Source: a virus. From it: a DNA stretch of 64,000 bases. The DNA is taken from the IMG/VR virus record IMGVR_UViG_3300035670_013228, positions 32,001-96,000 of that record; one strand, given 5' to 3'. Position 1 is the stretch's first letter, and the number at the start of each line of letters is the position of its first letter. Below are positions 27,959-46,549 of this stretch, in pieces. Below the pieces are notes generated by a model. It worked only from the letters and a program-made list of their open reading frames with translations, was not told the DNA's origin and did no database searches. The position numbers were made by a program, and so were the translations under genes.

Positions 27959-30900
27959 ATGGCAAAAGGTTTTAATCTTACGGCCGAAATTAATTTAAGA
28001 GGACCATCCAATATTAGACAAGTTGTCTCTGATATTAGAAGACAACTTGGTACTATAGACACAAATATTAATGTGACTCTTAATGCTCAAACAAATAAGC
28101 AAATATCTACTCTAGATAGAAGTTTTAAAACGTTTAATAATACTTTGTCTCAAACTAGGGCATTAAGTGATTCTACAGCAAGATCATTAAGTCAATTAGG
28201 AAATGCAGCAAAAACCCTAAGTTCATCTTTACAGACCATTCCTCAGACTATGACGCAAATATCTCAAGCCGCAACAAAAGTGGCGACAGATAATAATAAA
28301 GCTAAAGTAGCTACTCAACAAATGTCAACAGAATTTGCTGAATTTGGAAGACAATCAGCATTGGCAGTAAGAAGATTTGCCGCATTTGCTACTGTAACCG
28401 GTGTTATATTCAAAGTTTCAAATGCTATTAATACTGCTACTAAAGATTTTGTGGATTTTAATAAAGCTCTTGTGCAAGTTGCTCAGGTAACAGATGCCCC
28501 GGTCTCCTCTCTTGATTTTTTGGTGAATAATATAACATCTTTATCCACTAAATTGGGAGTAGCATCCAAAGATCTAATAGAGGTTTCTAGAACTCTAAGC
28601 CAGGCAGGATTATCTGCAAAAGATACTTCGGCAGCATTAGAAGCATTGGCGCTGAGTACATTAGCTCCGTCTTTTGATGATCTCAATAATACTGTAGAAG
28701 GTAGTATTGCATTAATGAGACAGTTTAGTATAGGGGCCGGAGATCTTGGAAGCGCATTAGGTAGTATCAATGCTGTTGCCGCTAAGTTTGCTGTAGAAGC
28801 CGGAGATATAGTTACGGCCATTCAGCGTACTGGTGGTGTGTTTGCAAATGCAAGTAAAGGAGTTAGCGAAGGTACGGATGCTCTAAATGAATTTATTGCT
28901 GTTTTTACTAGTGTTCGTGCTACAACACGCGAAAGTGCTGAAACTATCGCTACTGGCTTAAGAACTATTTTTACTCGAATCCAAAGAGAAGAGACAATAA
29001 ATGCTTTAAAGGGATACGGAGTAGCTCTTACTGATCTAGAAGGCAAATTCGTTGGACCATATGAGGCTGTTCGTAGACTAGCTCAGGGACTAAGTCAACT
29101 AGATCCAAGAGAAATTAGATTTAGTAGAATTGTGGAAGAGCTAGGCGGTTTTCGCCAAATTGGTAAAGTTATCCCACTTATTCAACAGTTCTCTACTGCG
29201 CAACAAGCGTTGTCTGTTGCTCAAAGAGGATCTAGCTCTTTAGCTAGAGATGCTGTAACAGCACAATTAAGTTTAGCTAATCAAATAACTAAAGTAAGAG
29301 AAGAATTTACTGCATTAATCAGATCTATAGGACAAACAGAAGGATTTAGAGATATTGTAAGATTAACTTTGGATCTTACTAGTAATTTAATAAGAATAGC
29401 AGATGCGGCCAAGGGTGCTTTGCCAGCACTAACAGCCATATTTGCTATAAAGGGTTTTCAGGCATTAACTCAATTTGGTACTGGATTTTTAAGTGGAATA
29501 CGTAGAGGCAATAATAGAGGATTATCTACTGGCGGTAAAGTACTATCATTTTCTCAAGGAGGAACCGTTCCCGGTAGCGGAAGAGGAGATAAAGTACCAG
29601 CTTTATTAGAACCGGGCGAAGTTGTAATGAGTAATCGGGCTGTTAGACAGTATGGTAGAGGTAATTTAGTAAGAATGAATAAGTATGCTGATGGCGGATT
29701 ACAGTATAATCAAAAAGAATCTACAGTAAGGGCTCATGCTATAGATCCAAAGAGATATGGTAGTAAAATAACTAAAAAAGAATATCTGGCACTATCTGGT
29801 AAGCGTAGTATCGGTAAAAAAATACAAAGCATTATTAATGGACGAGATTTAGAAGTTATTCCAAACTTTACAATAGCTTTGCCAGAATCTTTTAATAGAG
29901 CAATGAGAAGAGGTGGTTCTGGAAAAATACCTTTACCAGAATTTAAAAAGGCTCTTGATTCGCCATACTTATTATACGGTTCTAATGCAGAAAAGCTTAG
30001 TGGTAGAACTAAACGACAAGGTATCGGCAATATTCCTGCTAAAACAGTACAAGAAATTAGAAAGGCTTTCAAAGCAGAGGTGGATAGAACAGCCGAACCA
30101 CCTGCACCAGGATATATTAGTAGAGATGAGCAAATTTATAGATTCGCTGATATCGCTAAAAGCATATTAACTAGAGAAAAATTATGGAAATCAAGACCGC
30201 TGGAAATAATGTCTAGATCTTCCACTAGTACTGGAGGTACTCAATCCAGAGATTTTGTTCCAAAAATGATTGCACAACAATTTAAACCATTTAAGAATGG
30301 TGGAATTGCTAGTCGTCAAATTGGATATATAGATTATGATGTTATAGCTAATCCAGCTAATGAAGCGGTAGTATCTAAAGGAATGGAAGCTACCGGAGTA
30401 ACCGGCCCAAGATTATATGCTGATTACTTAACAAATCTTGCTGTTAAGCGTCGCAAAGAAGCCGGATTAGAAAAACTGCGAGCAATCTATGGAGTTGCCG
30501 GAGCAGGAAAAACTACACTTGCTCGAGGACAAGGCACAGACAAAGCATCATTAAGAGAAACAACAAGATTTCCAATATTAAGTCCAGAAGATATAAATAA
30601 AGCCAGTGAGGTTATAGTATTAAGTAGTAGTGTATCTCAGAAAAAACTTGACGAAATATTTAGTAATGTTGATAGAGCATATACTCTTAGCACAACAACA
30701 GCATCAGAAAAAGAAAGAATTAAATCTCAACGGGAGTCAAGAGATACTACAGGAATAGGATTAGAAGGAAGAAAACCCGGTGGTACAATTGGTATAGAAA
30801 ACGATACTGCAATTAGCGAAGCTTTATTATCAGATAGATTGGGTAAAAAATCTGTAGTATTAGGACGCTCATCTAGTGGCAAACTAAGACGAAAAACCGG

Positions 30901-33900
30901 AAATGAATTAGTAGAAGTTGTTAAGAAAAAAATAGGAGTAGCTTGGGGAGGTTTTGCTCCTATGACATTAGGTCACGAAAGTATTGTTGATAGTGCAAAA
31001 GCTATGGGTATAAGTCCAGAGGACTTCTTGTATATCGTTGGTAGTAATGAGGCAATCAAACTTGGAGACGCATCTTCGTATAGAACAGCAATTTTTAATC
31101 AAGACTCACGAGTACTATTAGCAAAAGCTGGTGCAGGAGCAAAAGGAGCAACAGTTTTACCAAAAGAAAAAGGATTCGAAATACCTTTAGGATTTGATAT
31201 AGGAGAATCTGGTGCTGATAGAAGAAAAGTATTATTACCAGGATCCGGTAGCGTTGCTTTTGTTGGCGACGAAAAATCAGAAGAAATATTACAAAAATAT
31301 AGAGATGCTGGCTACAAAACAAAATCCATAGGACGTATGGGCGATATTAGTGGAACAATGGTTCGAGATCTTATATCTCAGGGTAATTTAGGAGAACTAC
31401 AAAAAGTATTAAGTCCTAATGTTTATGAACTTATTAGTAATAATATTGGACGTATTCAAAATCGTGCTAATATTTTACCCAGTTTGATAGAACAAGTACA
31501 ACAAAGTCAAGCAGTTAAGTTAGCTGACGTTGAAAAACAAATAAAAAGTGTTGGTATTAGCAGAATTGATCAAAAGAAAATGAGCGATCCAGAATATGCC
31601 GCTAAGGCGGAGGCTTTATTAGAATTAAGAGCTCTTAGAGATAAAATTAAAAGCTCAGGATCATTTGAGCCATACAAACTATTAGATAGGTTAGCAGCCG
31701 ATCAACCAGAAAAGTACGGCTTAGACTTTACATTATCTAAACAAACCGAACCAAAACCAATAAGAACTGTTGGTCAACGACAAACTGCTAGTTTAGGAGG
31801 ATTAATTCAAAAATTAGCCGAAGGTGGAACAGTAGAAAGTATCGCTGCTAGAGATCAAAAATCTATTGAAGCTGTAGTGCTGGAACAATTGTCCAGCTTT
31901 GGAAATGCTAGTGGAGTTAAAAAAATATTAGGATTAGGAGCAGGAGACAGAGAGGCTAGCGCCATATTAAATGCTGGTAATATTAAAGCTGGTAAAAATA
32001 TAGAAAAAGCTATTAGATATATAAATAGAGCGTTAGCTAAGACAGGAAAAGCAGATGCTGCTAAAGAAGCAAAAGAAGCAGCTATGAGGAAAGTTGCAAT
32101 CGCCGGATTATTTCCATTAGATTATAATAAAGATTTTTCAGACTGGAAGTTGGAAGATGGTAGAGAAATTTATGGTTATGTTAGAGGATTTCAATCTAGC
32201 TTTTTACCACAAATAGAAGCTATGCAAGAGGCTAATAGAGCTACTCGCCAAAAATTTGCTGAAGATATTCAGGATACGGCAGCATTAGGCGGATTAGGTA
32301 ATAGAAATATTCAAGGACCAATTCAACCATTAGCAATAGATTTTGATGAAACATTAGCTCTTGGAACAAAAATGCTAGATGAAAATGGTAAAGAAGATTT
32401 ACCAGCCTATTCGGATAGAAAAAAGGTTATGGACAGCCTGGCCAAAGCTAGACCAACCTCTCTAGCTAAAAGATTGGCCAGTATAGAACAAAAAAATCCT
32501 GGATATGTTAGGATGTTTAGTCGTATCTTAACGGCCCGTCCTCAAAGCACAGCAGATATTATAACATCTACTCTTAATAGATTCGGATTACCATATATAG
32601 AACAAGATGTCACTGGAGTTAGTAAAGGATTAGGAACAGATATAGCAAAAGCAAAAGCTGCGAATGTTGCAAGAGCTGAAAAATTAATCGATGATAGTGA
32701 AGAAAATATTAGAGCAACAATGGCTGCTGGTAAAAGCACTTTTCGTTATGGCGAAGTACCAGAACTCAAAGGACCAGCAGAAGAAAAATTTGGACAATCT
32801 AATATTGAAGGAGGCTTGTTAGAAGCGGCACTATCTCAATTATTGGGTTATCCAATAAATGTTGATGCTTTACAAAGAAATAGGGCGATTGATTTTCCAC
32901 AAGGACTAGGTAGAGGTGCTCAACTTTTTGGATTACCTCCGAATATTGAAACAGAAGTAAAAAGGACTTTGGATGGAGACAGTTTTTCAAAAGCCAGAGA
33001 AGAATTTAGTAGATACTTTACAGAAAATCCACAAGCCTATGCTAAAGGAGGAGCAGCAACATTTGGCTCTGGATCATTTAAATTTCCCAAAAGAATAAGT
33101 AATGCTTATGTTCGGGAAATGGAAAAATTATTAGAACAAGAACAAATGGAGAAGGTTTTTGAGACGTATCCTCGTAATGAAAGAATGATTGTAGACGAAG
33201 AGGCTGTACAAAAAGGTTACGAATCTCCTTTTAGTAGAGAACTATTCATAAATTCATTTAAGGATAAAATAAGCAGAAATACAGTTTTTGAAAGAATGGG
33301 ACAATTTGCGAGAGTTATAGGATTGCCACCCACAGACTTTTTGTCTGCTATACCAACTCAGTTAGATTTTGGTGTTAATTATCCTGCTACAGCATTATTT
33401 AACAAGGATCCTTCTGGTCCAGGAACCAGAGGATTACAAGGAGTAGATTTAACACCATATGGTTATACTGAACAAGATAAACAAGATTTATTTGGATATA
33501 CTAAACTAATAGAAGAGAAAAAGAAACAAATATTAAAAACAATCAAAACTTCTGTTACAACATATGAAGATGGTAGTTTTGGTTATGATGTAGCTCTAGC
33601 AGAAAAACTAAGAGTAGAATTAAACGATCTACAAAAACAACAAAGATCTCTTATTGATAAAAATAATGCAGCCATTAAAGCTGCAAAAGAATCTAGATTA
33701 CAATCCGCAAACCAGAGTGGTCGTGGTAGCGTTGGTATAGCAACTAATCCGTTCAATACAAGTCAACGTCAAGACTATAGTATTTTATATCATGAATTAA
33801 CTCATCAACTTTTTAATAGTCTTAGAACTAAAAATGCTCAATCATTTGAAGCATACAAGGCAAAAGTTGCTAGTTTATTTAGTGGAAATAATGATGATGT

Positions 33901-36900
33901 AGCAGATGCTTTTGATGCTCTGGTGGGAAATACAGGATATAATAGTGCTGATGTTGCTTATGGAAGAAGTTATAAACTTAGTGGACTAAGCAGCTTGATG
34001 ATGGGATCGGCCAAAGAGTCATTTGCAAAATATGTTAATAGTGACCCAGAATATGTTCCAGAATTAAGAAAAACCTGGGCTGAAACAACCTCCACTACAA
34101 CCGCCAAAGCCTTTAAGCCACTTAATCCTAAAGTTAATGATATTTTATTAAGGGGTCAAATAAGTCAAGATGTTATAGATAAATATGAAGATAATGGCAA
34201 AGAAGAATTTTTAACAACACTAATACAAAAATTACCATTATTAGATGAAAATCTAAGCGGAGTTTTGGATAGTACTCTAAATGAGTTGTTAGGAGGCGCT
34301 GGAATAAGTAGACAAAAATTTGCTCTCGGTGGATTAGCAGATTCTAAAGATGCTATGTCTGGATTAATGCAAGGATTATATGGAAATAGAAGACAGCAAA
34401 CAGACAAAAAAGAAAAAGATTTTGGGAAAATAAGTATCACAGAAGACGGTGATATGCTTAGTGTTGGATATCTTAAAAATGAGAGTAGATCAGGATATGT
34501 ACAAGCAATGAAATACAAAGATAATCTATGGTATGTTGGATTATCAAAAGCTACTAAAGGATATGGACCAAGATTGTATGATGTGGCTATGGAGGCTGTG
34601 ACTGAAAAAGGAGGTATGCTAACTTCCGATAGAAGTATGGTCAGCTCTGATGCTCAAAAGGTTTGGGCTTATTACTTTAAAAATAGAGGAGATGTTAAAA
34701 AAACACCATTAGAACCAGAAAATTGGACTAAAAATCAAGCACTAATAGATCCTAAGCTTTATGGAAGAAAAGAAACATGGCCTCCAGCAAATGATCCGGC
34801 TTGGATACTACAGAGCGGCTATAGCAAAAGCCCCACCTTGCTTAATGATCCAGAACAAGTAAAAAGAAATAATAATAGAACACAAAAACCTGTTGATTCT
34901 AGAAGTATGGCTCTGTCATATTTTCAAAGAGCTGATGGCGGACCAATAAACCGTTTTGCTGATGGTGGTTCTGTTCCGGCTTTGGTAAGCAATGGTGAAG
35001 CTTATGTTCCTCCCAAACTTGCTAAACGTATTGGTTATGGAACATTAAATCGTATGAATCAAGCTGATAAAAATGGTATGGGACGATTTAGTGATGGTGG
35101 AATTAGTATATTTAAGGGGCCAGGAAGCGGAACTAGTGATAGTATACCAACAAGTTTACCTGTTGGAAGTTTTATAATAAGAGAAAAAGCTACAAAAGCC
35201 TTGGGATTAAATAGGGGCGGAAGTGTTGGAATACCACGTTTTAAAGACGGTGGTAGTCCAGGAAATCTAGAAGCAGAAATACAAAGAATATTAATAGAAC
35301 TAGAAAACTTTAAAAAAGCTATTTACGAAGGAGCTAGACAAGCGGGTAAAACAGCCACAGAAGCCAAACAGCAAGCAGACAGAGCGGTACTATCCAAAGG
35401 TTCAGAGATTCTATCTAGAACCGCAAAGCCTATAGATCCGAAAAACTTACCCCGAGGCAAAACACTTGAACAGGCCGAATCGGAAAGATCACAAACTCGA
35501 TCAGCCTCTTTTGAAGCACTAAGAAGGATGCAGGATCAATCTCCTATACTAAAGTCTAATACTGCAATACAAGTCTCTACTAGTCAAAAGATAACTGGAT
35601 TTTTTCAACAAATACTAGGTTTTTCTAAACAAACAGCACAAGCTCAACAAGACGGAGCTAAAGCTCAACAACAAGCGAGTAGCGCTATACAGCAATCTTC
35701 TGATCAACTACAGAATACCAGTAAAAAACAAAGTAACATTAATTTTGGGGGATTCGGTACGGCATTAGCTTTTACAGGACCGGCTCTTGCTAGTCAATTG
35801 GGAGAGGTCATAGGAGGAGCAACGGGTGCCGGCGTAGCAGGGGTCGCGTCTAATGTTTCAACATTTACTAGTATAGGTTCACAATTCGGTGGTATTGGAG
35901 CAATCGGAGGTTTACTAGTCGGATTAGCCACGTCCATAGATAGTTGGGGTGCTAGTATTGCAAATTTTGAAGCAACGGCTAGTGCTGCTAGAATCGATCA
36001 GATATTTGATACTACAACCAAAGCATTTGAAAGATTATCTACTAATATTAATGATAAAGGAGCTTTTAATGATGTTATAGGAAATTTTCAGAGAATACAA
36101 AATGAAGAAGTAAAATTAGCGGCTTTTAGAGAAAAAGCTAATGCTCCGTCAACACTAACCGGTTTGGGCAGAAGAATCGGCTTATTGTCAACACCAACCG
36201 CTGAAACAGTAGGAGGAGAAAAAGCGGTTAGTCAACAAAAAGCAGCAGCTGTGGCTCAACAATTTTTAGAATCTCAGATACAAGCAGAACAGGATTATAA
36301 AACAGTATCACAAAAACTACAACAAGCCGGATCCTCTTTTGATAGTTTATATGCTTCTATTTTAGAAGCTGATACAGCCTATGCTGTGGAGGTTGAAAAA
36401 ATTAAACAATCAACAGATACAGAAGATAGAAAAAATCAAAAAATTAACGAACTAACAGCTCAAAAAACACAAGAAATTAGAACAAGCATAGAAACTAGAT
36501 TTGCTGATATAGAAAGAGCCAAAGCAAACAAAAGACTAACTAAACAACTAGATTTTGTATCCGTTAGTTTGACCAGAACTTTTACCACGCTAAACCAATC
36601 AATTAACGCGGCTGCATTTAGTTTAGATCAAGCTTCTGAAAGTATTCAAAATATTGTTAATGATTCTGCAAATTTTAGTAATAGATTAAGAACATCTAAT
36701 ATTTTAGAAAATCCTAGAGCTTACTCTAGAGCCGAACAAAATGCCGCTATATCTCAATCCGCCCAATTTGCTGGAGGAGATAGACAGTTTATAGAACAAT
36801 TTGCACGATTTAGTTTAGATATAGAGGATTCCATGACATCCGCTCTGAATCAAGCCAGAGCAGGAGGAGTTACAGATCCTAATGTTATAGGAGACAGATT

Positions 36901-39900
36901 TGGTTCTTTGTTAACCAATCAACTAGATAGTATTTTTGGACCGCAACTTGGAGAAAGTATCAGATCGCAATTTAAAACAGCTATCAACGAATTAACAAAA
37001 GGAGGAACAAAATTAGAAGATATTAGTACACAAGATATATTAGATAATATACCCGGACTAAATCAACAAGTACAAGCTAGTAAACAAGTATTCGAAGCAT
37101 TAAATGCTAGTGCAAAATTTTTAGAAAATGCTTTGAATTTTGTTGGAGCATCAGCTAAAGAATATGGATCTTTACAAGATAAATTAGCTGAAAATATAGC
37201 ATCTTCACAAAATATTATTGCTCAAAGTAATCTTAGTTTACAAGAAGCGCTAGGCAAAAGAATCTCATTAAGCGAAAGAAGACAGGCTAGAACATCAACC
37301 GCTGCTATTCGTGCTGGAGTAAGACCACAAGATTTAAATGCTAATTTCTTATCTGATAGAAGAGATACATTAATACAACAAAAACAAAATATCGAAAAAT
37401 CATTAGACAATCTATCACAGTCTTTTAATAAGAGAGATTTAGCAGCATCTAGACAATTCGTTGAGCTCAATAAACAACTAGGCTTAACAGAATCTTCTAT
37501 TAGACAAGTTAATCAGGCACTAGAAAGTTTACCGCAAAATATAGAGCAAAATATTAATGATATTATTTCAGAAATATCTAGATTACAACAAAAATCTGTT
37601 AATATCACAGGAGCATCAACATCATTTGGCGAAAAACTATTAGGAAGTACTCCTCAAGAACTACAGGAACTAGGAACAACATTCAATATTCTTAATAGTG
37701 CATTATCTGGTAATTTAAATACTATTCAACAATCTCAAGCTGCTCAACTAGCTTATAGACAAGCTTTGGATGATGGAAAAACTCAACAAGAAGCTATGGT
37801 AGTTGCTCAACAGGCTTTTGCCGGACAAACAAGAAATGTTTTAGGATTGTTTAATGAACTTAGTTCTATGAGTGGTCTAGAAGAAGATGAACTTAGACCA
37901 ATAAGAGCACAATTATTCAAAAATTTAGCATCATCTCAAGGAGCAGGACTAGAAAATAATCCTATATTTCAAACTATTATTAATAGGTTGGAACAGCCAC
38001 CAGAAGAAAGTAGAGAAATAAGAGAATTAAGAAATTTATTACAGGTTGAACAACAATCTTTAATACAGAGCACAGAAACAATTAATCAAAATACCCTAGA
38101 TAAACAAACAGCAGTATTAGATGCTGCTAATCAAAGATTTATAGATGCATTAAATGATATTGAGGTTAGATTTAATACAGAACAATTAAGAAGCATGGGA
38201 TTAGGATTAAGTAGACCAGGAGATATTAAGCCGCCGGCGGCCCCTCAAGCCAGAGCCAAAGGAGGCTTAATTTATGCTAGTGATGGAACATATGTAAATT
38301 ATCAACCTAAAGGTACTGATACTATACCAGCAATGCTAAGTCCGGGAGAATTTGTGGTTAACGCACAAGCTACTAAAAATAATCTTGGTTTATTAAGATC
38401 TATTAATAGTAGTGTTGGTAGTGGAAAAACTTTTAGTAGTGGAGGAGTAGTTTATGCAGCTGACGGTGGGTCGTCAGCAGCCAAGGGATTATTTAGTAAC
38501 AGATATTTTCCAACACTTGGTCCAATATGGGATAGTATTAAAAAGTTATTTAGCTCCGCTGGTAAATTTAGTATTCCCAATTTGGGTAATTTGGGTAAAT
38601 TAGATTTAACTCAATTATTGAGCAGTGGGGTTCGTGGATTAGGTAGGCTTGGAGGTAATATTGGTAATACTCTCATAGACGATTTTGCTAAGGGTGGTTT
38701 GAAAACCGCAATCACAAACATTGTTGATGCATTTAGTAGTTTGGGTAATACTTTTTCTCTAACATCTGACGGAAACCTGCTTCCAGGACAGTCAGATAGC
38801 GTACTAGATGATGTTAGTAAAAATTTAAGAAGTATATTCAGCAAGACCAAAGGCGCTGGTGTGCTGTTTAGATATTTGGGGCCATTGATCGGTGGTGTGC
38901 AAGGATTTATGGCCGATACGGAAAAAACCAAAAGAAACTCGTATGCTAATGCAGCATTAGGAGCACTTACCGGAAGTGGTACCACCATGGGGGATGTTGG
39001 CGCAACATCTATTACCGGATCTCAAACTGGTGGTAATTTATTACAAGCTGGTTTGGCAACAGCGCAGTATATGAGTATGGGGGTTCCACCACCACTAGCC
39101 GCTGCTTTAGCTGCTGGCGCCATGACTACCCAAGAAGTTATGGGATATATGGGAGATATTGATGAAACAAGAGCGTCTGAGGCCAGAACACAATCTATTA
39201 GTCAATCTCAACGAAATGCTGGTAGAGTAGTTTCTAATGACATAAAGCGAAAACCAGGAGAAACTAACGAAGAATATAGAAGTCGCAGAATAGAAGAAAG
39301 AGCAGTCGAAAGAGTTGGCGCAAATAAACTTGTAGGATTTAATGCTAATGAAAGATTATGGATAGCTACTAAAGCTAGATTAACAAATGAAAAAGAATCA
39401 TTATTATCACGACTTGGTCCGGATAGTCCTCAAGTGGTAGAGATTGATAGAAAAATTAAAGAACATGATAATAGTCGTTCTAGTATTTTTCAAGATACAA
39501 GATTTAATAGCACTGGAGCTGTTTTAAGTTATATCGGATTAGGTAGTGCTACTACTGTTAACGAAACTAAGAGCGCGACAGAAATAGAAGCTGCTGTACA
39601 AAGTGAACAAAAATACCAAAAAGCCATGGCAGTTGCAAGAAGAGAAGAACAAGAATATTTTGCAGATATGGATGATAGAAGAGCATTAGCTAGACAAAAT
39701 AAGCTGGAAAAAGAATTAAAAGACAAAGGTATATCTTTGGATAAGGACGGTGATGACGAGTTAGATTCCGAGTTCGTAAAGGAAGAGGGGGATCCGGACT
39801 ATCAACGTTATCTGGATATGCAGGCTATATTCGATACGCAACAATTTATACAAAGGAGTGAGAAAGCAGCGGAAACCGAAGCAAACGACAAAGCCGAATT

Positions 39901-42900
39901 ATTAGAACTTGGCTTACCATCCTATGCTTCTGAGGCTCAAGTCGATGCGGCCCGGCAGATACGCGATGCTAAACAACAAGCCACACAGATAGAACAAAGG
40001 ATAAAAGAAGAATTAGATACGGATAATATTCCGGGAGTAGGCAGATTCAAAACATCGTCTCAATTACGAGCAGATGCGTCTGATAGAAATTTTGGTTTAC
40101 CACCAGAGGTTTTGGCTAGTGGTAACTTTAATGAGTGGCAACAATTATTAGCAAAGAAAGAAAAAATATTTGCAAAAATTGAAGAATTGAATCGTGGCAG
40201 ATTGGTATCTAGTGGTGATCCGTTTAGTGGTGATACTATTACCACCTCTTTGAGAGAAGCTAATGCAGATGAATTAGGGCGATATTTAACAGAATATCAA
40301 CAGCTAGCACAAATAGATAGTGATCTAGCACGGGCATATCAAACCGGATTAGAAAACTATGCAAGCACAAATTATCCAAGCGCAGATATAGATGAGGTAC
40401 GAAGTATGGCTTGGGATGATTATGATAAAGGTATACGATCCAAAGAAGCAGAAGCTCAAAAAAGAGACAAACTTGCAGCAAATAAAGAAGCTGATAAACA
40501 AGCTAAGATGTGGAAAACCGTAGCTAGTATAAGTAATGTTAAATTACCTTCTAAATTCGAGAATCCTGGTAAATTCTTAACTTTCAGATCAAATATATTA
40601 GATAAACTAAAGAGTAAATTTCCATTATCGGGAGATCCGTCAACAGATATTCAAACTATGCAACAATATGGTTTAGATGCTAATATAGCCGAGGCTATAT
40701 TCAAACCATTTGATAATAATCAAATAGCTGCTGTAGCATCTTTAATTCCTATTAGTGCAAATACTGATCCTGTTTTGCGCAGTCAAGTATCATTATTATC
40801 TCAAGCATCCAGCGCATCAATCGACACTGCTAAAAATAATGCATATTTATTAAATATTATACAAAAGAATCCTAAAGTTAATCAAAAATTTAAAACAGCT
40901 TTTATTAAAAGTGTTAATGATATAAATAACTTTAATAAAATGGTTACTGGATATAATCAATTAGATCCAACAAAACAAAATAATGCTAGAGCTAATTTAC
41001 TTAAAAGATTAACTAGACAAGGATATATTGATCCTAGAGATCCTAATGGTAGCATTGATAGACTAAATGCTTTGGGTGGCACTAATGTTTCTCAGTTCCT
41101 ATTTCCTAATCAACAAGCTCAAAATAAAGTTATCAGAATAGCCGGTGCTAAAAATTCAGGAGGTATAGTATATGCTAGTGGCGGAATGCTTGTGCCGTAC
41201 GAGCCCAAAGGAACTGATACTGTGCCGGCTATGCTTACCCCAGGAGAGTTTGTTGTTAATAAACAAGCAACAGCAAGAAATAAAGGATTATTAGAATCTA
41301 TTAATAGAAGCAAAGGAGGAAGTGTTAAATATTTAGCTGATGGAGGTTTGGCTTCAGATACTAGTGATAAAATTACAGTAGGCACTAAAGATGGAACTAG
41401 TATAGTAAGACAGAATCCATTGTATACAACAGTTCAAGATAATCTACGATATACTAAGCGATTAGATAGTATGGCTGTGAGTACAGAGAAAACATTGAAG
41501 GGTCATACACGATCTCTTGAGTATATAGGATCAGGAGTTACAAAACTTAATAATCGTATTGATTCGGCAAGTACTACATTAGGCGTACCATTTTCTAGAG
41601 GTGGAATAGTTTATGCTAGTAATGGAATGTTAGTTCCTTATCAACCAAAAGGCACAGATACTGTTCCGGCCATGTTGACTCCCGGCGAATTTGTGGTTAA
41701 TCGTCAAGCAACATCTAAACATAGAGGTTTGCTAGAATCTATTAATAGAAACAAAGGAGGAAGTGTTAAATATTTAGCAAATGGTGGGCCCTCTTCTGAT
41801 AGCGAAGTAACAAAAGTTGTTGACGGAGTGCAGATAACAAAACCTAGCGAGGTATTAAAATTAAGCAAAGAAAATTTATCTACTAGTAAAACTCTTTTAA
41901 CGAATAGTATCAAAACCAAAGAAATATTACAGAACAGTAACAATTATTTCGTTTCTAGTGATAAAACAGTTAATGAAAAACTAGATAAGATTTTACAAGA
42001 TAATAAAGGACTAAGAGAAGATACAGCGCAAGAACATAAGAAGACTAGAAGACATATTGAGCGTGAACATTTTCATACTAAAGAATATATTGATTATGCA
42101 CACTATGGGACTAGGGACAAGCTAGTGGCTGAACATGCTACTACGAGAACTCATATTACTGCCGAAGATAACGATACTAGACAATACGTTGCTGATCAGC
42201 ATGACAATACCAGAAAGTCTGTTGCTGATGAGCATAAGAAGACTAGATCTGAGATCCCTTCCCATCTGAAGATCTCGATGAAGGCAAGAGGAGCTGAAAC
42301 AGACGCACATACCACGATTGAGGCGATGGGTATTAAATCACATGTTACAGACGAACATAAGCTTACCAGAAACTTTTTGTTGCGTCAACAGCCTAAAAAT
42401 CTTGCTTCTGGCGGCATAGTTTATGCTAGTAATGGACAACTAATTAATTTTCAACCAAAAGGTACCGACACTGTTCCGGCAATGTTAACGCCGGGAGAAT
42501 TTGTTGTTAATGCAAAAGCTACTAAAAATAATTTAGATTTATTACATAGTATAAATAATGGTGGCAAACCATATAGTAGAGGAGGTGTTATTCATTTACA
42601 AGATGGTGGACTAGCAGTAGACAAAGGAGATAGAGTAGCAGAAGCATATAATGCTACATTAAAAGCATATGAACAACCCGAAGACGCTCAGCTAACGAAC
42701 AAAAAAATACCCATAAAAGGTGGTGAAGCTCAATATTTTCCAAAATTAGATTATTTTGCTCTATATGATAGACCTAGTGGGATTCCTGATGAAAACAGGA
42801 TCAGTGGCGATTCATTCTCAAGAGGATTTAGAATTCAGGTAAGAGAAGGAATAATAAGTAGAAGCAATGTACCACGAGAGCCTTCGGCCGCTGTTAGCGA

Positions 42901-45900
42901 ATTAGGAGACGAAGAACTTTCCACTATTTGGACAATTAATAAACAAGACTGGCTTAGCGATGAGGCCGCGAAACGAGGAGTTGATATTAATAGAGGTGAT
43001 AATCGTCCGTGGAAAGATAGAGTTCAGAACCGTCTTCCAACGGAATACCCAGAAAAATGGTGGGAAAAGTTCGATCAAGATCCGGAATTAAGAGAAAATC
43101 TGGCGACGCTTAACGCTGCCGCCAACACAATGGGTGGTAGCAGTAAAATTAGCCCTATCTGGGATTATGGACGGAACTCTAGAGATCAAGTTGAAACCAT
43201 TAGAAAGAAGATAAAAGATTATTTAGTAGCTAAAAAAATTAAAGAATCTGTTGCAGAAGACACAGCAATGGGAATATCAGAATCGGAAATATTAACATAT
43301 TTAGAAAGATATTCATCTTTAACAGACTTTAATAGTAACAAGAGCGACAAAGATGAAAAACTATATTTTTGGGAACAATGGTTGAGTAGAATTAGATTAT
43401 ATAATAGAGTCACAGGGAGAGAGGACCAGGAGGGACCGACTATTTATATACCAAATGATCAAACTCCGCAACAGAGAGAAGATGCTAGACTAGCAGCAGA
43501 AGCGAGAAAAGCTGAAGAGATCAGAAAAGAAGAACAAAGAAAAGCTGAAGCAACTAGAAAAAGAGTAGAAGACTATAAAACAGAGAGAACACGAGCACAG
43601 CGCGCACAAGATCCTGATGCTATTTGGAAATTACCTGGCGATAAAGAACAAACAACAAACGAATGGTCAGGAAAACCACCACAGCCTGAAAGAAGATGGG
43701 TTTCTCTAGATGAGAAATACGCCACCATTGGAACATTAGTTGCTTATAAAGATGGTAAAGCATCTATTCGTAAACCAACTGGTCAAACTATAGTTGTTGA
43801 TCAAAATAAATTAAGTGAAATGGATCAAAAGTATTTGACTGATCTTCTTATTGAACAAAAAACACAGCCTCTACCAACTCCGAAATCTCGAACTGGTCCG
43901 CAAACTTTGCCAACACCACAATCTCAAACGCGTCAGCAACCCTTACCAATCCCAAAACCTCAAACCGGTCCTCAAACAAAACCAGCCGATAGGCAATTAC
44001 CGACTCCCAGACCTCAAACCGGTCCTCAAACAAAGCCAATCCCCGAACCCAAGACTATTCCTCAAGATAATTCATATGTATGGTTAGGTGGACATAAAAT
44101 AAATGATAAACCACTAAAAGGAACTTACATTAATAAAGATAGTAATGGCGTACTTATACAAACTCCGGAAGGAAAAAATATCAGAGTAGATCCGTATACT
44201 TGGAATAAATATTCGACTCCAGAAGACAAAGCAAAAACCATGTCTCCTTCTGCTATGAGTCGTGGAGGAATAGTTTATGCTCAATTTGGAGGATTATTAA
44301 ATGATGATCAGTCTACAGTAGATATTTATAATCCACAAGCAATGAAGTCTACTTTAGACAGTTTAACAATGTCATTATTACCATATACCAGCAATGAAGT
44401 TGGACAACAAAGATTAATAATGGCTACAAATCAAAACTATGGCATAAGTGGTATAAGGCAATCAAATTTGCCGGGTAGAGCATCCGCAATGTTTGATGTT
44501 CAGTCTAGAAATTTAGTGTTTCGAGACAGAGTAATAAGATCAGCAACAGCAAAACACGAAATGGCTCATGCTTTAGCAAATAGTGTTCATGCTCCTCCAA
44601 CAACTAGAGATCAACAATTTGCAAATCAGATGGGACAATTTTCTTCCGAAGAAGCTCTTAGAATATGGGAAGCAAGAGCACAAATTAAAAAACAACAATA
44701 TATAGAGTCTGGGATAGACCGAGAACGTGTTGAACAACAATATCAGGCAGAAAAAAGGTTGCTGATACAACAACTTGGAAATAGAGGAAACGCTAGAAAT
44801 AGTATTGTTGCACAAATGGGAGAAGAACTTTACGAAAATAATTATCAACAACTGGCTGATACTAGTTATACCCTAGATCAACTAAATGCTATGCCTAATG
44901 AACTATTTGCTGTTATTGCTAGTATAGCAGACGCACCCGAATTTAGTAATATGCCGGCGAGTCAAGCTTTTTTGAAACAAAGCATGAGAACTTTAGGCTA
45001 TAGTAAAGGCGGAGTTGTTTATGCTAATAAGGGTATGCTAATTCCATACCAACCAAAAGGCACCGACACTGTTCCGGCCATGTTAACTCCTGGGGAGTTT
45101 GTTATAAACAGAGCAGCCACACAGGCTAATTTACCTTTATTACAAAGTATCAATAGCGGGAGGTATAATAAAGGAGGCATAGTTTATGCCGAGGATGGTA
45201 AATGTATTGGCAAGCAAACAGAAGATAAGTCAAATACAGAATCCAAACAACCAAAAAAGAAAGAACAATCTGCGAATCAGACACAAAATAATGTACAAGG
45301 AATAGATATTACCGATCCAAGACAAAGAGAACAAGCACTTGGTGGAATGTATAGAAGCTTAATTCCTTATACTACGGGAGAAGCTGGACAACAAAAATTA
45401 GCTATGGGTTTTACAGCATTGAAATCTGTAAGAATCAATATTAATCAGAGTAGACTTAAACAAAAGGGAGCTGGCGCGGAATTTGAGACATCTGGTCTAG
45501 GAACAGATCCTGGAACAATATATGTTCCTGGAAAAATGGTTGATACACCATTATTAAGGCACGAATATGGCCATGCTCTCATAGCAGCAACAACTCCTAG
45601 ACAATTTATGCAGAATATCTCTGGGGTTGCTCCTATAAGTCAATTTATCAACAGTTTAGAAAAAGCTAATGCTCGCATCAGGGTTACTCCACATAACTAT
45701 GAGGATGGTGGAGAAGTTGAGGATAAAAAAACACAACAACCATCAGAAAAAACCAATACTATAGGAATTTATAACAAAGAGCAGTTATTAAAAAATCCTC
45801 AGGAGGTATTCGCTACGCTCGTTCAATTGATAGGTAGTAACTTATTTCATAATTTGGGCGGGTCTGATGCTCTTCGTGCTGCTATGAAAATTTATGGATT

Positions 45901-46549
45901 TAATAAAGGAGGAATGGTTTATGCTAATAATGGTATGTTAATCGATTATAAACCAAAGGGTACGGATACTGTTCCTGCTATGCTTACTCCCGGCGAGTTT
46001 GTTATTAATCGCCAAGCAACACAACAAAATCTGCCCTTGTTGAGAGCTATAAATAATGGAGATAGCGCAATACCATATAGCAATGGTGGAATTGCTTATC
46101 TAAGACGAGGCGGCCAAACTAGTAACCTGTCGCAATCTTATGGATATGCTCAGCAATTTGACAATATTTCTAGGCAACTACAAGTATTTAATGGTATATT
46201 AATGGGCGCTAATCAGACACTAAATCAATTTGGAAATACATTACAACAAATTGGAGTCAATTTACAAAGAAATAATCAGAATATTGGCGGCGGTGTAAAT
46301 AATATTGATGGATTATCAAGATTTACATCAGCTTTTAATACTTTTATTACCCAATTGTCTTCTATTAGGATTCCAGAAATTATAACTATGCAACTAGCAC
46401 CATTACCACCAATTCAGGTAGTTATTACAGGAGCCGAAGCTCTTGCTGCTATAGAACCAGGACTACAAAGAACAATTAGTAGTCGTATAAATGAAGCATT
46501 GTCTTCTTTTGCTAATAATTTTGATGGAATAGATATTCAACAATCATAA
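27959..46549 (+). CDS. Giant (6,196 aa) tape measure protein carrying multiple enzyme-like cargo domains
   Basis: N-terminal ~520 aa is a classical TP901-type TMP core (AVRRFAAF...LVQVAQVT...LSQAGLSA...SINAVAAKFAVEAGDI...IATGLRTIFTRI). It sits after the tube and chaperone genes. A second helical segment spans ~35250-38230. Motifs: GVAGAGKTT (30491), TLGH (30965), DFDET (32339), ID...EVK (32891-32962), HELTH (33791), GYGPRLY (34559), HEMAH (44555), HEYGH (45560). Confidence 0.9.
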   Translation: MAKGFNLTAEINLRGPSNIRQVVSDIRRQLGTIDTNINVTLNAQTNKQISTLDRSFKTFNNTLSQTRALSDSTARSLSQLGNAAKTLSSSLQTIPQTMTQISQAATKVATDNNKAKVATQQMSTEFAEFGRQSALAVRRFAAFATVTGVIFKVSNAINTATKDFVDFNKALVQVAQVTDAPVSSLDFLVNNITSLSTKLGVASKDLIEVSRTLSQAGLSAKDTSAALEALALSTLAPSFDDLNNTVEGSIALMRQFSIGAGDLGSALGSINAVAAKFAVEAGDIVTAIQRTGGVFANASKGVSEGTDALNEFIAVFTSVRATTRESAETIATGLRTIFTRIQREETINALKGYGVALTDLEGKFVGPYEAVRRLAQGLSQLDPREIRFSRIVEELGGFRQIGKVIPLIQQFSTAQQALSVAQRGSSSLARDAVTAQLSLANQITKVREEFTALIRSIGQTEGFRDIVRLTLDLTSNLIRIADAAKGALPALTAIFAIKGFQALTQFGTGFLSGIRRGNNRGLSTGGKVLSFSQGGTVPGSGRGDKVPALLEPGEVVMSNRAVRQYGRGNLVRMNKYADGGLQYNQKESTVRAHAIDPKRYGSKITKKEYLALSGKRSIGKKIQSIINGRDLEVIPNFTIALPESFNRAMRRGGSGKIPLPEFKKALDSPYLLYGSNAEKLSGRTKRQGIGNIPAKTVQEIRKAFKAEVDRTAEPPAPGYISRDEQIYRFADIAKSILTREKLWKSRPLEIMSRSSTSTGGTQSRDFVPKMIAQQFKPFKNGGIASRQIGYIDYDVIANPANEAVVSKGMEATGVTGPRLYADYLTNLAVKRRKEAGLEKLRAIYGVAGAGKTTLARGQGTDKASLRETTRFPILSPEDINKASEVIVLSSSVSQKKLDEIFSNVDRAYTLSTTTASEKERIKSQRESRDTTGIGLEGRKPGGTIGIENDTAISEALLSDRLGKKSVVLGRSSSGKLRRKTGNELVEVVKKKIGVAWGGFAPMTLGHESIVDSAKAMGISPEDFLYIVGSNEAIKLGDASSYRTAIFNQDSRVLLAKAGAGAKGATVLPKEKGFEIPLGFDIGESGADRRKVLLPGSGSVAFVGDEKSEEILQKYRDAGYKTKSIGRMGDISGTMVRDLISQGNLGELQKVLSPNVYELISNNIGRIQNRANILPSLIEQVQQSQAVKLADVEKQIKSVGISRIDQKKMSDPEYAAKAEALLELRALRDKIKSSGSFEPYKLLDRLAADQPEKYGLDFTLSKQTEPKPIRTVGQRQTASLGGLIQKLAEGGTVESIAARDQKSIEAVVLEQLSSFGNASGVKKILGLGAGDREASAILNAGNIKAGKNIEKAIRYINRALAKTGKADAAKEAKEAAMRKVAIAGLFPLDYNKDFSDWKLEDGREIYGYVRGFQSSFLPQIEAMQEANRATRQKFAEDIQDTAALGGLGNRNIQGPIQPLAIDFDETLALGTKMLDENGKEDLPAYSDRKKVMDSLAKARPTSLAKRLASIEQKNPGYVRMFSRILTARPQSTADIITSTLNRFGLPYIEQDVTGVSKGLGTDIAKAKAANVARAEKLIDDSEENIRATMAAGKSTFRYGEVPELKGPAEEKFGQSNIEGGLLEAALSQLLGYPINVDALQRNRAIDFPQGLGRGAQLFGLPPNIETEVKRTLDGDSFSKAREEFSRYFTENPQAYAKGGAATFGSGSFKFPKRISNAYVREMEKLLEQEQMEKVFETYPRNERMIVDEEAVQKGYESPFSRELFINSFKDKISRNTVFERMGQFARVIGLPPTDFLSAIPTQLDFGVNYPATALFNKDPSGPGTRGLQGVDLTPYGYTEQDKQDLFGYTKLIEEKKKQILKTIKTSVTTYEDGSFGYDVALAEKLRVELNDLQKQQRSLIDKNNAAIKAAKESRLQSANQSGRGSVGIATNPFNTSQRQDYSILYHELTHQLFNSLRTKNAQSFEAYKAKVASLFSGNNDDVADAFDALVGNTGYNSADVAYGRSYKLSGLSSLMMGSAKESFAKYVNSDPEYVPELRKTWAETTSTTTAKAFKPLNPKVNDILLRGQISQDVIDKYEDNGKEEFLTTLIQKLPLLDENLSGVLDSTLNELLGGAGISRQKFALGGLADSKDAMSGLMQGLYGNRRQQTDKKEKDFGKISITEDGDMLSVGYLKNESRSGYVQAMKYKDNLWYVGLSKATKGYGPRLYDVAMEAVTEKGGMLTSDRSMVSSDAQKVWAYYFKNRGDVKKTPLEPENWTKNQALIDPKLYGRKETWPPANDPAWILQSGYSKSPTLLNDPEQVKRNNNRTQKPVDSRSMALSYFQRADGGPINRFADGGSVPALVSNGEAYVPPKLAKRIGYGTLNRMNQADKNGMGRFSDGGISIFKGPGSGTSDSIPTSLPVGSFIIREKATKALGLNRGGSVGIPRFKDGGSPGNLEAEIQRILIELENFKKAIYEGARQAGKTATEAKQQADRAVLSKGSEILSRTAKPIDPKNLPRGKTLEQAESERSQTRSASFEALRRMQDQSPILKSNTAIQVSTSQKITGFFQQILGFSKQTAQAQQDGAKAQQQASSAIQQSSDQLQNTSKKQSNINFGGFGTALAFTGPALASQLGEVIGGATGAGVAGVASNVSTFTSIGSQFGGIGAIGGLLVGLATSIDSWGASIANFEATASAARIDQIFDTTTKAFERLSTNINDKGAFNDVIGNFQRIQNEEVKLAAFREKANAPSTLTGLGRRIGLLSTPTAETVGGEKAVSQQKAAAVAQQFLESQIQAEQDYKTVSQKLQQAGSSFDSLYASILEADTAYAVEVEKIKQSTDTEDRKNQKINELTAQKTQEIRTSIETRFADIERAKANKRLTKQLDFVSVSLTRTFTTLNQSINAAAFSLDQASESIQNIVNDSANFSNRLRTSNILENPRAYSRAEQNAAISQSAQFAGGDRQFIEQFARFSLDIEDSMTSALNQARAGGVTDPNVIGDRFGSLLTNQLDSIFGPQLGESIRSQFKTAINELTKGGTKLEDISTQDILDNIPGLNQQVQASKQVFEALNASAKFLENALNFVGASAKEYGSLQDKLAENIASSQNIIAQSNLSLQEALGKRISLSERRQARTSTAAIRAGVRPQDLNANFLSDRRDTLIQQKQNIEKSLDNLSQSFNKRDLAASRQFVELNKQLGLTESSIRQVNQALESLPQNIEQNINDIISEISRLQQKSVNITGASTSFGEKLLGSTPQELQELGTTFNILNSALSGNLNTIQQSQAAQLAYRQALDDGKTQQEAMVVAQQAFAGQTRNVLGLFNELSSMSGLEEDELRPIRAQLFKNLASSQGAGLENNPIFQTIINRLEQPPEESREIRELRNLLQVEQQSLIQSTETINQNTLDKQTAVLDAANQRFIDALNDIEVRFNTEQLRSMGLGLSRPGDIKPPAAPQARAKGGLIYASDGTYVNYQPKGTDTIPAMLSPGEFVVNAQATKNNLGLLRSINSSVGSGKTFSSGGVVYAADGGSSAAKGLFSNRYFPTLGPIWDSIKKLFSSAGKFSIPNLGNLGKLDLTQLLSSGVRGLGRLGGNIGNTLIDDFAKGGLKTAITNIVDAFSSLGNTFSLTSDGNLLPGQSDSVLDDVSKNLRSIFSKTKGAGVLFRYLGPLIGGVQGFMADTEKTKRNSYANAALGALTGSGTTMGDVGATSITGSQTGGNLLQAGLATAQYMSMGVPPPLAAALAAGAMTTQEVMGYMGDIDETRASEARTQSISQSQRNAGRVVSNDIKRKPGETNEEYRSRRIEERAVERVGANKLVGFNANERLWIATKARLTNEKESLLSRLGPDSPQVVEIDRKIKEHDNSRSSIFQDTRFNSTGAVLSYIGLGSATTVNETKSATEIEAAVQSEQKYQKAMAVARREEQEYFADMDDRRALARQNKLEKELKDKGISLDKDGDDELDSEFVKEEGDPDYQRYLDMQAIFDTQQFIQRSEKAAETEANDKAELLELGLPSYASEAQVDAARQIRDAKQQATQIEQRIKEELDTDNIPGVGRFKTSSQLRADASDRNFGLPPEVLASGNFNEWQQLLAKKEKIFAKIEELNRGRLVSSGDPFSGDTITTSLREANADELGRYLTEYQQLAQIDSDLARAYQTGLENYASTNYPSADIDEVRSMAWDDYDKGIRSKEAEAQKRDKLAANKEADKQAKMWKTVASISNVKLPSKFENPGKFLTFRSNILDKLKSKFPLSGDPSTDIQTMQQYGLDANIAEAIFKPFDNNQIAAVASLIPISANTDPVLRSQVSLLSQASSASIDTAKNNAYLLNIIQKNPKVNQKFKTAFIKSVNDINNFNKMVTGYNQLDPTKQNNARANLLKRLTRQGYIDPRDPNGSIDRLNALGGTNVSQFLFPNQQAQNKVIRIAGAKNSGGIVYASGGMLVPYEPKGTDTVPAMLTPGEFVVNKQATARNKGLLESINRSKGGSVKYLADGGLASDTSDKITVGTKDGTSIVRQNPLYTTVQDNLRYTKRLDSMAVSTEKTLKGHTRSLEYIGSGVTKLNNRIDSASTTLGVPFSRGGIVYASNGMLVPYQPKGTDTVPAMLTPGEFVVNRQATSKHRGLLESINRNKGGSVKYLANGGPSSDSEVTKVVDGVQITKPSEVLKLSKENLSTSKTLLTNSIKTKEILQNSNNYFVSSDKTVNEKLDKILQDNKGLREDTAQEHKKTRRHIEREHFHTKEYIDYAHYGTRDKLVAEHATTRTHITAEDNDTRQYVADQHDNTRKSVADEHKKTRSEIPSHLKISMKARGAETDAHTTIEAMGIKSHVTDEHKLTRNFLLRQQPKNLASGGIVYASNGQLINFQPKGTDTVPAMLTPGEFVVNAKATKNNLDLLHSINNGGKPYSRGGVIHLQDGGLAVDKGDRVAEAYNATLKAYEQPEDAQLTNKKIPIKGGEAQYFPKLDYFALYDRPSGIPDENRISGDSFSRGFRIQVREGIISRSNVPREPSAAVSELGDEELSTIWTINKQDWLSDEAAKRGVDINRGDNRPWKDRVQNRLPTEYPEKWWEKFDQDPELRENLATLNAAANTMGGSSKISPIWDYGRNSRDQVETIRKKIKDYLVAKKIKESVAEDTAMGISESEILTYLERYSSLTDFNSNKSDKDEKLYFWEQWLSRIRLYNRVTGREDQEGPTIYIPNDQTPQQREDARLAAEARKAEEIRKEEQRKAEATRKRVEDYKTERTRAQRAQDPDAIWKLPGDKEQTTNEWSGKPPQPERRWVSLDEKYATIGTLVAYKDGKASIRKPTGQTIVVDQNKLSEMDQKYLTDLLIEQKTQPLPTPKSRTGPQTLPTPQSQTRQQPLPIPKPQTGPQTKPADRQLPTPRPQTGPQTKPIPEPKTIPQDNSYVWLGGHKINDKPLKGTYINKDSNGVLIQTPEGKNIRVDPYTWNKYSTPEDKAKTMSPSAMSRGGIVYAQFGGLLNDDQSTVDIYNPQAMKSTLDSLTMSLLPYTSNEVGQQRLIMATNQNYGISGIRQSNLPGRASAMFDVQSRNLVFRDRVIRSATAKHEMAHALANSVHAPPTTRDQQFANQMGQFSSEEALRIWEARAQIKKQQYIESGIDRERVEQQYQAEKRLLIQQLGNRGNARNSIVAQMGEELYENNYQQLADTSYTLDQLNAMPNELFAVIASIADAPEFSNMPASQAFLKQSMRTLGYSKGGVVYANKGMLIPYQPKGTDTVPAMLTPGEFVINRAATQANLPLLQSINSGRYNKGGIVYAEDGKCIGKQTEDKSNTESKQPKKKEQSANQTQNNVQGIDITDPRQREQALGGMYRSLIPYTTGEAGQQKLAMGFTALKSVRININQSRLKQKGAGAEFETSGLGTDPGTIYVPGKMVDTPLLRHEYGHALIAATTPRQFMQNISGVAPISQFINSLEKANARIRVTPHNYEDGGEVEDKKTQQPSEKTNTIGIYNKEQLLKNPQEVFATLVQLIGSNLFHNLGGSDALRAAMKIYGFNKGGMVYANNGMLIDYKPKGTDTVPAMLTPGEFVINRQATQQNLPLLRAINNGDSAIPYSNGGIAYLRRGGQTSNLSQSYGYAQQFDNISRQLQVFNGILMGANQTLNQFGNTLQQIGVNLQRNNQNIGGGVNNIDGLSRFTSAFNTFITQLSSIRIPEIITMQLAPLPPIQVVITGAEALAAIEPGLQRTISSRINEALSSFANNFDGIDIQQS
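42023..42376 (+). repeat. His-rich 11-residue (hendecad) repeat in the TMP
   Basis: Seven tandem copies of the xxx(E/Q/A)(H/D)xxT(R/K)xx pattern (42023-42253), plus one more at 42344-42376. Confidence 0.8.
43856..44065 (+). repeat. Pro/Gln/Thr linker repeat with an exact 24-bp duplication
   Basis: QPLPTPKSRTGPQT / LPTPQSQTRQ / QPLPIPKPQTGPQTK / QLPTPRPQTGPQTK. ACCTCAAACCGGTCCTCAAACAAA occurs at 43957-43980 and 44011-44034. Confidence 0.85.

Follow-up and report, generated by a model that had tools for sequence, protein, structure and literature searches.

A giant phage tape measure protein with a fixed scaffold and exchangeable, putatively tail-delivered enzyme modules

We analysed a window of 64,000 nucleotides (positions 32,001 to 96,000) of the IMG/VR virus record IMGVR_UViG_3300035670_013228, a record of 177,880 bp from an uncultured phage of ~178 kb, with a focus on one plus-strand gene (window positions 27959–46549) that encodes a protein of 6,196 amino acids (aa). 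Read from its sequence, this protein is a tape measure with a fixed scaffold, composed of a TP901-type core, a helical/glycine-zipper ruler, junction modules and a conserved C-terminal end, into which two cargo bays are set. The scaffold carries conserved, exchangeable enzyme modules, and we consider it probable that the tail delivers them into the host. Bay 1 (aa ~590–2330) comprises three units, namely a kinase-like module with a nucleotidyltransferase (K+N), a block M with a phosphatase and a small D...ExK block (M+H+P), and an HExxH domain with a small GNAT domain (G). Bay 2 (aa ~3500–6000) is lineage-specific and holds SHD1-like domains, two further HExxH domains and an orphan block. The modules of both bays are each bounded by short hydrophobic-x-x-Gly-Gly junctions.

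The gene is a single unbroken plus-strand frame of 6,196 codons plus stop. Pfam PF10145 (PhageMin_Tail) matches aa 192–383 with an E-value of 5e-21 (75.8 bits versus a cut-off of 33.2; 83.2 bits in the genome-wide search), and six PHROG tape-measure families match aa 33–774. Genes of the size of small tail proteins and chaperones precede it and genes of distal-tail size follow, an order that recurs identically around a 4,746-aa relative (L056); family searches with the immediate neighbour genes gave no matches. The PhageMin_Tail and PHROG matches together with the tail gene order mark this as the tape measure gene and, at the level of sequence, the product is a true TP901-type tape measure protein, so that the frame and the genuine core that an earlier note on this DNA had claimed are both present. 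The genome gave no match to any tail-sheath family, which is consistent with a siphovirus; the tail is probably long and non-contractile.

A search for relatives, limited to proteins of 3.4–10.8 thousand residues, retrieved at least 319 giant tape measures of 3.4–7.7 thousand residues, nearly all of them with PhageMin_Tail and on contigs of up to ~250 kb. Identical relatives have been assembled repeatedly: the 4,746-aa protein is found on ~10 contigs, a 6,352-aa cluster on 35, and a 6,560-aa relative on four contigs from NCBI, JGI and Logan. The exact 6,196-aa protein is recorded on one JGI contig (189,401 bp), and megablast found no match to the gene in a set of 50,697 phage records. DNA composition is even along the gene, and its internal DNA repeats are only 60–77% identical. 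Such even composition and diverged repeats, together with the repeated identical assemblies, establish that the class of giant tape measures is real.

The architecture of the family was derived from the parts of the query that 120 relatives cover in BLAST and from a block-by-block tally. The scaffold proved to be its usual and constant part, with the core (aa 1–516) covered in 119–120 of the 120 relatives, the junction copies in ~107–113, part of the ruler (aa 2800–3430) in 83–100 and the C-terminal end in 60–92. Cargo, by contrast, has been gained, lost and reordered to the extent that the 120 relatives display 64 block arrangements, and aa 3550–4350 and 4620–5680 are nearly private to the phage studied here. 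The check proposed in the earlier note, that cargo should vary across homologous tape measures while core and linkers stay fixed, thus came out positive. Nine loci from different metagenomes share 92–97% identity with aa 1284–2431, whereas their cores are only 58–70% identical and K–N is missing at that place. One of the nine lacks precisely aa 2127–2326, the GNAT block, and the deletion starts and ends at Gly-Gly junctions. Judged by these alignments, aa 1284–2431 is a recently transferred cassette. The φ-x-x-GG motif (hydrophobic-x-x-Gly-Gly) occurs 30 times in the protein as compared with 5.5 ± 2.3 times in shuffled sequences, and sits at block boundaries.

Median identity across the family amounts to 67% for K, 64% for N and 60% for the core, against ~25% for the helical ruler; the K and N modules (window 30326–31738) are therefore better conserved than the tape-measure core itself, and the ruler far less. 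Ratios of nonsynonymous to synonymous substitution rates (dN/dS) of the cargo range from 0.06 to 0.21 at unsaturated dS values of 0.06–0.35, placing the cargo, by this sequence measure, under purifying selection. Some relatives carry other domains as well: a Pfam ADP-ribosyl exotoxin domain (PF03496) lies beside G or K–N blocks in P0020, P0142 and P0167, which are relatives or fragments of relatives, and EF-hand pairs are found in P0004 and P0019, indicating that the cargo repertoire of the family is wider than that seen in the window.

Pfam is nearly blind to the cargo: searches of the genome with AAA_33, HAD_2 and Acetyltransf_1 gave no match in the gene, and single-sequence phmmer searches of both cargo regions against the PDB returned nothing. 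Alignments were thus assembled from related viral contigs, followed by two predicted models, one of aa 790–1185 with a predicted local distance difference test score (pLDDT) of 78 and one of aa 1460–2330 (AlphaFold2, AF2). According to these models, four modules have enzyme folds, and their catalytic residues are invariant or nearly so. Of the at least eight enzyme-like domains that the earlier note had listed, the kinase, the HIGH nucleotidyltransferase, the HAD phosphatase and the GNAT domain thereby hold at the level of predicted folds, while the three HExxH domains and the PD-(D/E)xK-like block stand by invariant motifs only, with no fold match for the former and a pLDDT below 50 for the latter.

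K and N form an obligate adjacent pair, separated by a gap of 0 in 87 of 88 relatives, and every occurrence of the unit lay within a giant tape measure; no free gene of 215–716 aa that encodes it turned up. In K, the lysine of the Walker motif and two aspartates are invariant (86/86), as are, or nearly so, the His of TxGH and the S/T/R of ISGTxxR in N (86/86), for which the model predicts a Rossmann-like nucleotidyltransferase fold. The N profile matched MJ0951 (2.6e-4) and, as second-best, PDB entry 9x6f (0.067), at the HIGH motif. Pfam CTP_transf_like spans nearly its whole profile on N at 16.4 bits, under the cut-off of 21. NadR matches to K–N were confined to the NMNAT part, and hhalign against E. 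coli NadR gave a motif-level match only. NadR, CoA synthase and PAPS synthase also combine a P-loop kinase and a HIGH nucleotidyltransferase, and by this analogy K–N is most likely a cofactor-type synthesis pair. The entry 9x6f is the phage NadR-like enzyme Bas30_86, and a phage NadR-like kinase+NMNAT enzyme rebuilds NAD+ against Sir2-HerA (PMC13464706), from which we derive as our leading, still tentative guess that K–N might be an injected NAD+-rebuilding unit of the NadR/NARP3 type. As in Bas30_86 (NARP3) and NadR, a P-loop kinase is joined to an NMNAT-fold adenylyltransferase, the form of the HIGH motif (GxFAPxTxGH) agrees with that of N, and both 9x6f and NadR turned up in the sequence and fold searches. 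Unlike in NARP3 and NadR, the fold nearest to K is that of zeta toxin/polynucleotide kinase (PNK) rather than of a demonstrated ribosylnicotinamide kinase; K–N is also embedded in a structural protein, whereas the NARP3 enzyme is an early gene product, and no PnuC-like partner of K–N is known.

In module H, both Asp residues of HAD motif I and the DD of motif IV are present in 67 of 67 relatives, and the DxDxT, S/T, K and DD motifs are accompanied by a predicted Pnkp-like fold; hhalign against a single sequence, E. coli YjjG, gave a motif-level match only. Given its Pnkp-like fold, H(–P) may clear 3'-phosphates off nucleic-acid ends, and thereby heal them, or may dephosphorylate nucleotides. 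In the relatives, M was never seen apart from H, and P usually comes 6–11 residues after H. A link to the Macro-type ADPR-1P phosphatase (10.64898/2026.01.28.702374) was considered and dropped, as the fold of that enzyme differs. In the P block, D1645 and K1668 are conserved in 93 of 93 relatives and E/D1666 in 91 of 93. For G, the model predicts a GNAT fold in which the two Gly of the GNAT motif are invariant (46/46); PF00583 did not match, and hhalign aligned GYGP to RimI motif A only at an E-value of 0.09. Judged by analogy, G most likely acylates host proteins or small molecules.

HExxH motifs lie at aa 1945, 5533 and 5868, the first of them conserved together with E2082/E2083 in 50 of 50 relatives, which supplies a candidate third ligand. 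None of the three blocks yielded a fold match; for the one around aa 1945, none was among the matches listed, where other domains filled the lists. Going by their motifs, these domains would most likely act in self-processing or host proteolysis. The SHD1-like domains named in the earlier note find support through intermediate homologues: the direct Pfam match (PF03983, aa ~5238–5440) stays below the cut-off (18.5 versus 23.7 bits, E = 0.0018), and seven of the ten library matches scanned for this region are SHD1 proteins (E-values of 1e-17 to 5e-67). Between the two domains lie five tandem units of 36–54 nt (window 43871–44074) encoding Pro-rich repeats of the LPTP-x-x-x-TGPQT type. Unassigned blocks are likewise present as the earlier note had stated, namely A, M and, as a further example, block U (aa 4890–5210), for which zero homologues were found at E ≤ 1e-3 among 1.84 billion representatives (1.84e9). 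Loosely repeated (D/E)xHxxTR units make up aa 4620–4810, where metal binding is possible judging by sequence.

The junction module that recurs along the scaffold spans ~65 residues and reads GG-x-VYA ... KGTDTVPAMLTPGEFVVN ... LL..IN ... GG. Six clear copies and several degenerate ones are present in the protein studied here, and the junction hidden Markov model (HMM) detected 1–8 copies in each of 121 giants out of 121. A broader HMM, made from 462 junction copies, matches residues 752–784 of lambda gpH (E = 1.7e-6, single-target search), the common motif being PAxLxxGEFV...AT...L...GG. During tail maturation, a C-terminal piece of ~14 kDa, gpHC, is cut from gpH within a glycine-rich region, the exact cleavage site and the protease being unknown (PMC12617516). 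Residues 752–784, as located by the HMM, fall inside gpHC and are hence removed at maturation (PMC12617516). A genome-wide search with Pfam PF09718 (Tape_meas_lam_C) returned nothing at E ≤ 10; because that model does not reach the protein, the sequences argue for a shared motif, not for family membership. Among isolated phages, 57 with very different hosts carry the module in their annotated tape measure, one copy to a genome, and these single copies qualify it, on sequence grounds, as an old tape-measure element that the giant family has multiplied. In lambda, with its gpH/gpH* and gpHC, the module is flanked by xxGG motifs, as it is here, and lies within the part that is cleaved off; lambda and the 57 isolated phages carry it once, as opposed to the six clear and additional degenerate copies of the present protein.

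Tape measures of siphophages are held in a metastable state in the tail lumen, are expelled first and help to form a channel through the envelope (PMC12617516; 10.1101/2022.09.20.507954). If the tape measure is expelled on infection, then anything covalently part of it should be expelled too. The enzyme modules would accordingly be stored within the tape measure in the tail in an unfolded or extended state, would leave with it ahead of the DNA, and would refold in the host cytoplasm and act before phage genes are expressed; by analogy with these systems, we rate this sequence of events as somewhat likelier than an even chance. Kinase, adenylyltransferase and GNAT belong to families that depend on ATP or acyl-CoA, cofactors of the cytoplasm, which argues for action inside the cell and not in the envelope. 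Cutting at the junctions, which would free the enzymes, is a doubtful further step: the multiplication of a gpH-type module, the GG junctions and the three HExxH domains favour it, and gp96 of Thermus phage P23-45, which stays whole (PMC10770324), speaks against it. In its boldest form, which we think unlikely to hold in full, the proposal is that of a programmable multi-effector injector, where an unfolded polyprotein would be cut at φ-x-x-GG and gpH-type junctions, perhaps by its own HExxH domains, to release K–N for NAD+ rebuilding against NAD-depleting immunity, a Pnkp-like unit and a GNAT enzyme ahead of phage expression, and would be re-armed by cassette swapping.

A number of points count against this proposal. 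The phage is uncultured, the protein is known here from sequence alone, and its exact 6,196-aa arrangement is found on a single contig. Folded domains of 20–40 kDa in several copies cannot fit into a tail lumen of 3–4 nm, so that the proposal must assume storage in an unfolded or extended form. The order of domains in NadR, NMNAT followed by ribosylnicotinamide kinase, is reversed in K–N. No NAPRTase/Nampt partner gene, RNA ligase or RtcB was detected in the genome, each a weak absence given the high divergence of the phage. A split T4 Pnkp, with kinase and HAD phosphatase as one unit, was dropped as an interpretation, since K and H are inherited independently (46 relatives have both, 42 only K and 22 only H; odds ratio 0.5, p = 0.14); while T4 Pnkp combines kinase and phosphatase in one unit, the two are separate modules ~270 aa apart here, with no ligase partner found.

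The same protein could be understood as an uncut giant ruler, all 6,196 residues of which line a tail of ~0.9 µm, with no processing and with enzymes that stay covalently attached and, should they act at all, do so from a tether at the entry pore. Such a tail is not absurd when judged by analogy, because those of phages P23-45 and P74-26 reach nearly 1 µm with a tape measure of 5,002 aa (PMC10770324, PMC10034513). The P23-45 protein gp96 is full length in virions, sets the ~1 µm tail and has been proposed to act while tethered (PMC10770324, PMC10034513), and the lack of a sheath family in the genome would fit a long non-contractile tail. Relatives with cores 53–78% identical, however, span 3.4–7.7 thousand residues, with near-identical cassettes inserted or deleted, and tail length would have to swing more than 2-fold among close kin if every residue counted; besides, the part that is cleaved off lambda gpH contains this very junction module (PMC12617516). 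We therefore give the uncut ruler limited credence.

The embedded enzymes might instead work in the producer cell at assembly, or be relics, and not be delivered at all, for example if the HExxH domains trim the tape measure and the others are lost before the virion is complete. The presence of three HExxH domains would suit such a role, as would the cleavage, of unknown mechanism, that the tape measures of lambda and T5 undergo while their tails assemble (PMC12617516; 10.1101/2022.09.20.507954). Strong purifying selection and invariant residues on kinase, nucleotidyltransferase, HAD phosphatase and GNAT domain, for which there is no obvious assembly role, and the restriction of the K–N unit to giant tape measures render this improbable. 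Least credible to us is that the arrangement is a chimera from metagenome assembly, in which related phages that co-occur were fused in frame where they have junction or cassette sequences in common. The exact protein on one contig only would be in line with such an origin, and a chimeric join could give the same pattern as the near-identity (92–94%) of aa 1284–2431 to phages with cores 30–40% different. Yet the internal repeats are too diverged at the DNA level for a mis-join within the genome, the frame is open over 18.6 kb at even composition, and identical copies of equally mosaic relatives come from as many as 35 contigs of different sources. Our preferred explanation is that the tail delivers exchangeable modules.

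Tape measures with peptidoglycan hydrolase domains are already known. In P23-45, the 5,002-aa gp96 is a tape measure fused to a virion RNA polymerase that acts on DNA in the cell and remains uncleaved (PMC10770324). Its giant size and its enzyme, which is carried in the virion and acts in the cytoplasm, invite comparison with the present protein, as do its metallopeptidase, its membrane segments and the very long tail that goes with it. It differs in its one N-terminal RNA polymerase, with no cassette array or repeated junction module reported, whereas here six to eight unrelated modules are exchanged among relatives and no RNA polymerase was identified. T5 pb2 is cleaved to pb2* and pb2C, freeing an enzymatic fragment that is expelled on infection (10.1101/2022.09.20.507954); its cargo is muralytic and not cytoplasmic, unlike that predicted here. 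Polyvalent proteins of phages and conjugative elements (Iyer et al. 2017, PMC5512222) likewise unite numerous unrelated enzyme domains, among them GNAT, zincin-like, kinase and nuclease-like ones, in a single virion-associated polypeptide with predicted action at entry, and the gene analysed here also encodes several unrelated enzymatic domains in one polypeptide among virion genes. Their hallmark MPTase-PolyVal (PF18818), however, has no match in the gene, the nucleotidyltransferase is of the HIGH and not the Pol-beta type, and the survey of polyvalent proteins makes no mention of tape measures (PMC5512222). The suggestion in the earlier note that this is a candidate new system has to be toned down: a cytoplasmic enzyme fused to a tape measure (P23-45) and release of an enzymatic fragment (T5 pb2) had already been published. 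No description of tape-measure cassette arrays of this kind was found in the literature. New here are the fold-level NMNAT, Pnkp-phosphatase and GNAT assignments, the statistics of module linkage and the selection analysis.

Counter-defence that is co-delivered with the genome acts before host immunity responds, and few routes for it are known, namely the T4 internal proteins, the virion polymerases of N4 and crAss phages, and P1 Dar. If the tape measure were a general carrier with standard junctions, this would explain tape measures far longer than plausible tail needs. Hundreds of giant relatives with different cassettes would then constitute a large natural catalogue of injected effectors, and the tape measure a modular site for payloads in engineered phages. 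The tape measure family also supplies an experimentally checkable candidate for where lambda gpH is cut.

The features assigned within the gene are compiled in Table 1. The conserved C-terminal end is presumed to be the tail-tip end by analogy with lambda gpHC and T5 pb2C.

Table 1. Features of the giant tape measure gene in window coordinates, with the evidence for each.
Feature	Position	Strand	Evidence
Whole tape measure gene	27959..46549	+	Open reading frame list; syntenic slot behind small tail genes, as in relative L056
N-terminal tape-measure core, aa 1–516; hydrophobic segments aa 133–158 and 477–504	27959..29506	+	Pfam E 5e-21; 119–120/120 relatives; hydropathy
Degenerate first junction copy, aa 523–585	29525..29713	+	Junction HMM, E 1.7e-5
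Block A, aa 600–780, rare	29756..30298	+	2/120 relatives; no Pfam match
K, P-loop kinase-like, aa 790–1000, Walker A GVAGAGKTT	30326..30958	+	
N, HIGH-superfamily nucleotidyltransferase, NMNAT/PPAT-like, aa 1000–1185	30956..31513	+	
M, conserved block, aa 1290–1460	31826..32338	+	37 relatives, only together with H; dN/dS 0.18–0.20
H, Pnkp-type HAD phosphatase, aa 1460–1605	32336..32773	+	
P, small E...D...(E/D)xK block, aa 1605–1730, commonest cargo	32771..33148	+	96/120 relatives
HExxH-bearing block (motif at aa 1945)	33176..34258	+	Alignment; 50/50 conservation; pLDDT 82–96; dN/dS 0.06–0.10
G, small GNAT-fold domain, aa 2140–2320	34376..34918	+	
Two degenerate junction-like copies, aa 2323–2436	34925..35266	+	Sequence reading; stretch covered by 78–88/120 relatives
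Helical glycine-zipper ruler, aa 2440–3430; hydrophobic GxxxG stretch aa 2636–2667	35276..38248	+	aa 2800–3430 in 83–100 relatives, ~25% identity; hydropathy
Junction copy, aa 3431–3496	38249..38446	+	HMM, E 2.5e-37
Variable charged helical region, aa 3720–4390	39116..41128	+	~7–25/120 relatives
Junction copy, aa 4397–4462	41147..41344	+	Junction HMM
Junction copy, aa 4544–4609	41588..41785	+	Junction HMM
His/Thr/Arg-rich repetitive block, aa 4620–4810	41816..42388	+	Sequence reading; in 0/120 relatives
Junction copy, aa 4814–4876	42398..42586	+	Junction HMM
Orphan block U, aa 4890–5210	42626..43588	+	Homologue search
Two SHD1-like (SH3-like) domains with Pro-rich 12-aa repeats between, aa 5230–5440	43646..44278	+	Pfam, library matches, repeat family D4
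Junction copy, aa 5680–5746	44996..45196	+	Junction HMM
Block with HExxH motif at aa 5868	45266..45898	+	Covered at ≥50% in 5/120 relatives
Junction copy, aa 5980–6044	45896..46090	+	Junction HMM
Conserved C-terminal end, aa 6060–6196; hydrophobic segment aa 6138–6165	46136..46546	+	Covered by 60–92/120 relatives; hydropathy

From the large terminase gene onward, ~94 kb of the 178-kb genome form a plus-strand structural block of very large genes, among them genes for proteins of 1,517, 1,332, 2,730 and 4,465 aa. The 4,465-aa frame (window 297–13694, +) is a second giant located upstream of the tape measure gene, with faint tail-fibre PHROG matches at aa 254–347. The frame at window 60052–63999 (+) runs off the window; it measures 2,730 aa in the full record (genome 92052–100244) and has no PHROG match. 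A 786-aa protein (window 20075–22435, +) combines fn3, Mtd_N and YHYH domains, Mtd_N being the N-terminal domain of the tropism determinant of the Bordetella phage diversity-generating retroelement (DGR). The JGI contig exceeds the viral record, which IMG/VR classes as a provirus, by ~11.5 kb. The sole tRNA of the record, tRNA-Leu(CAA), is located outside the window (genome C1:175989–176071).

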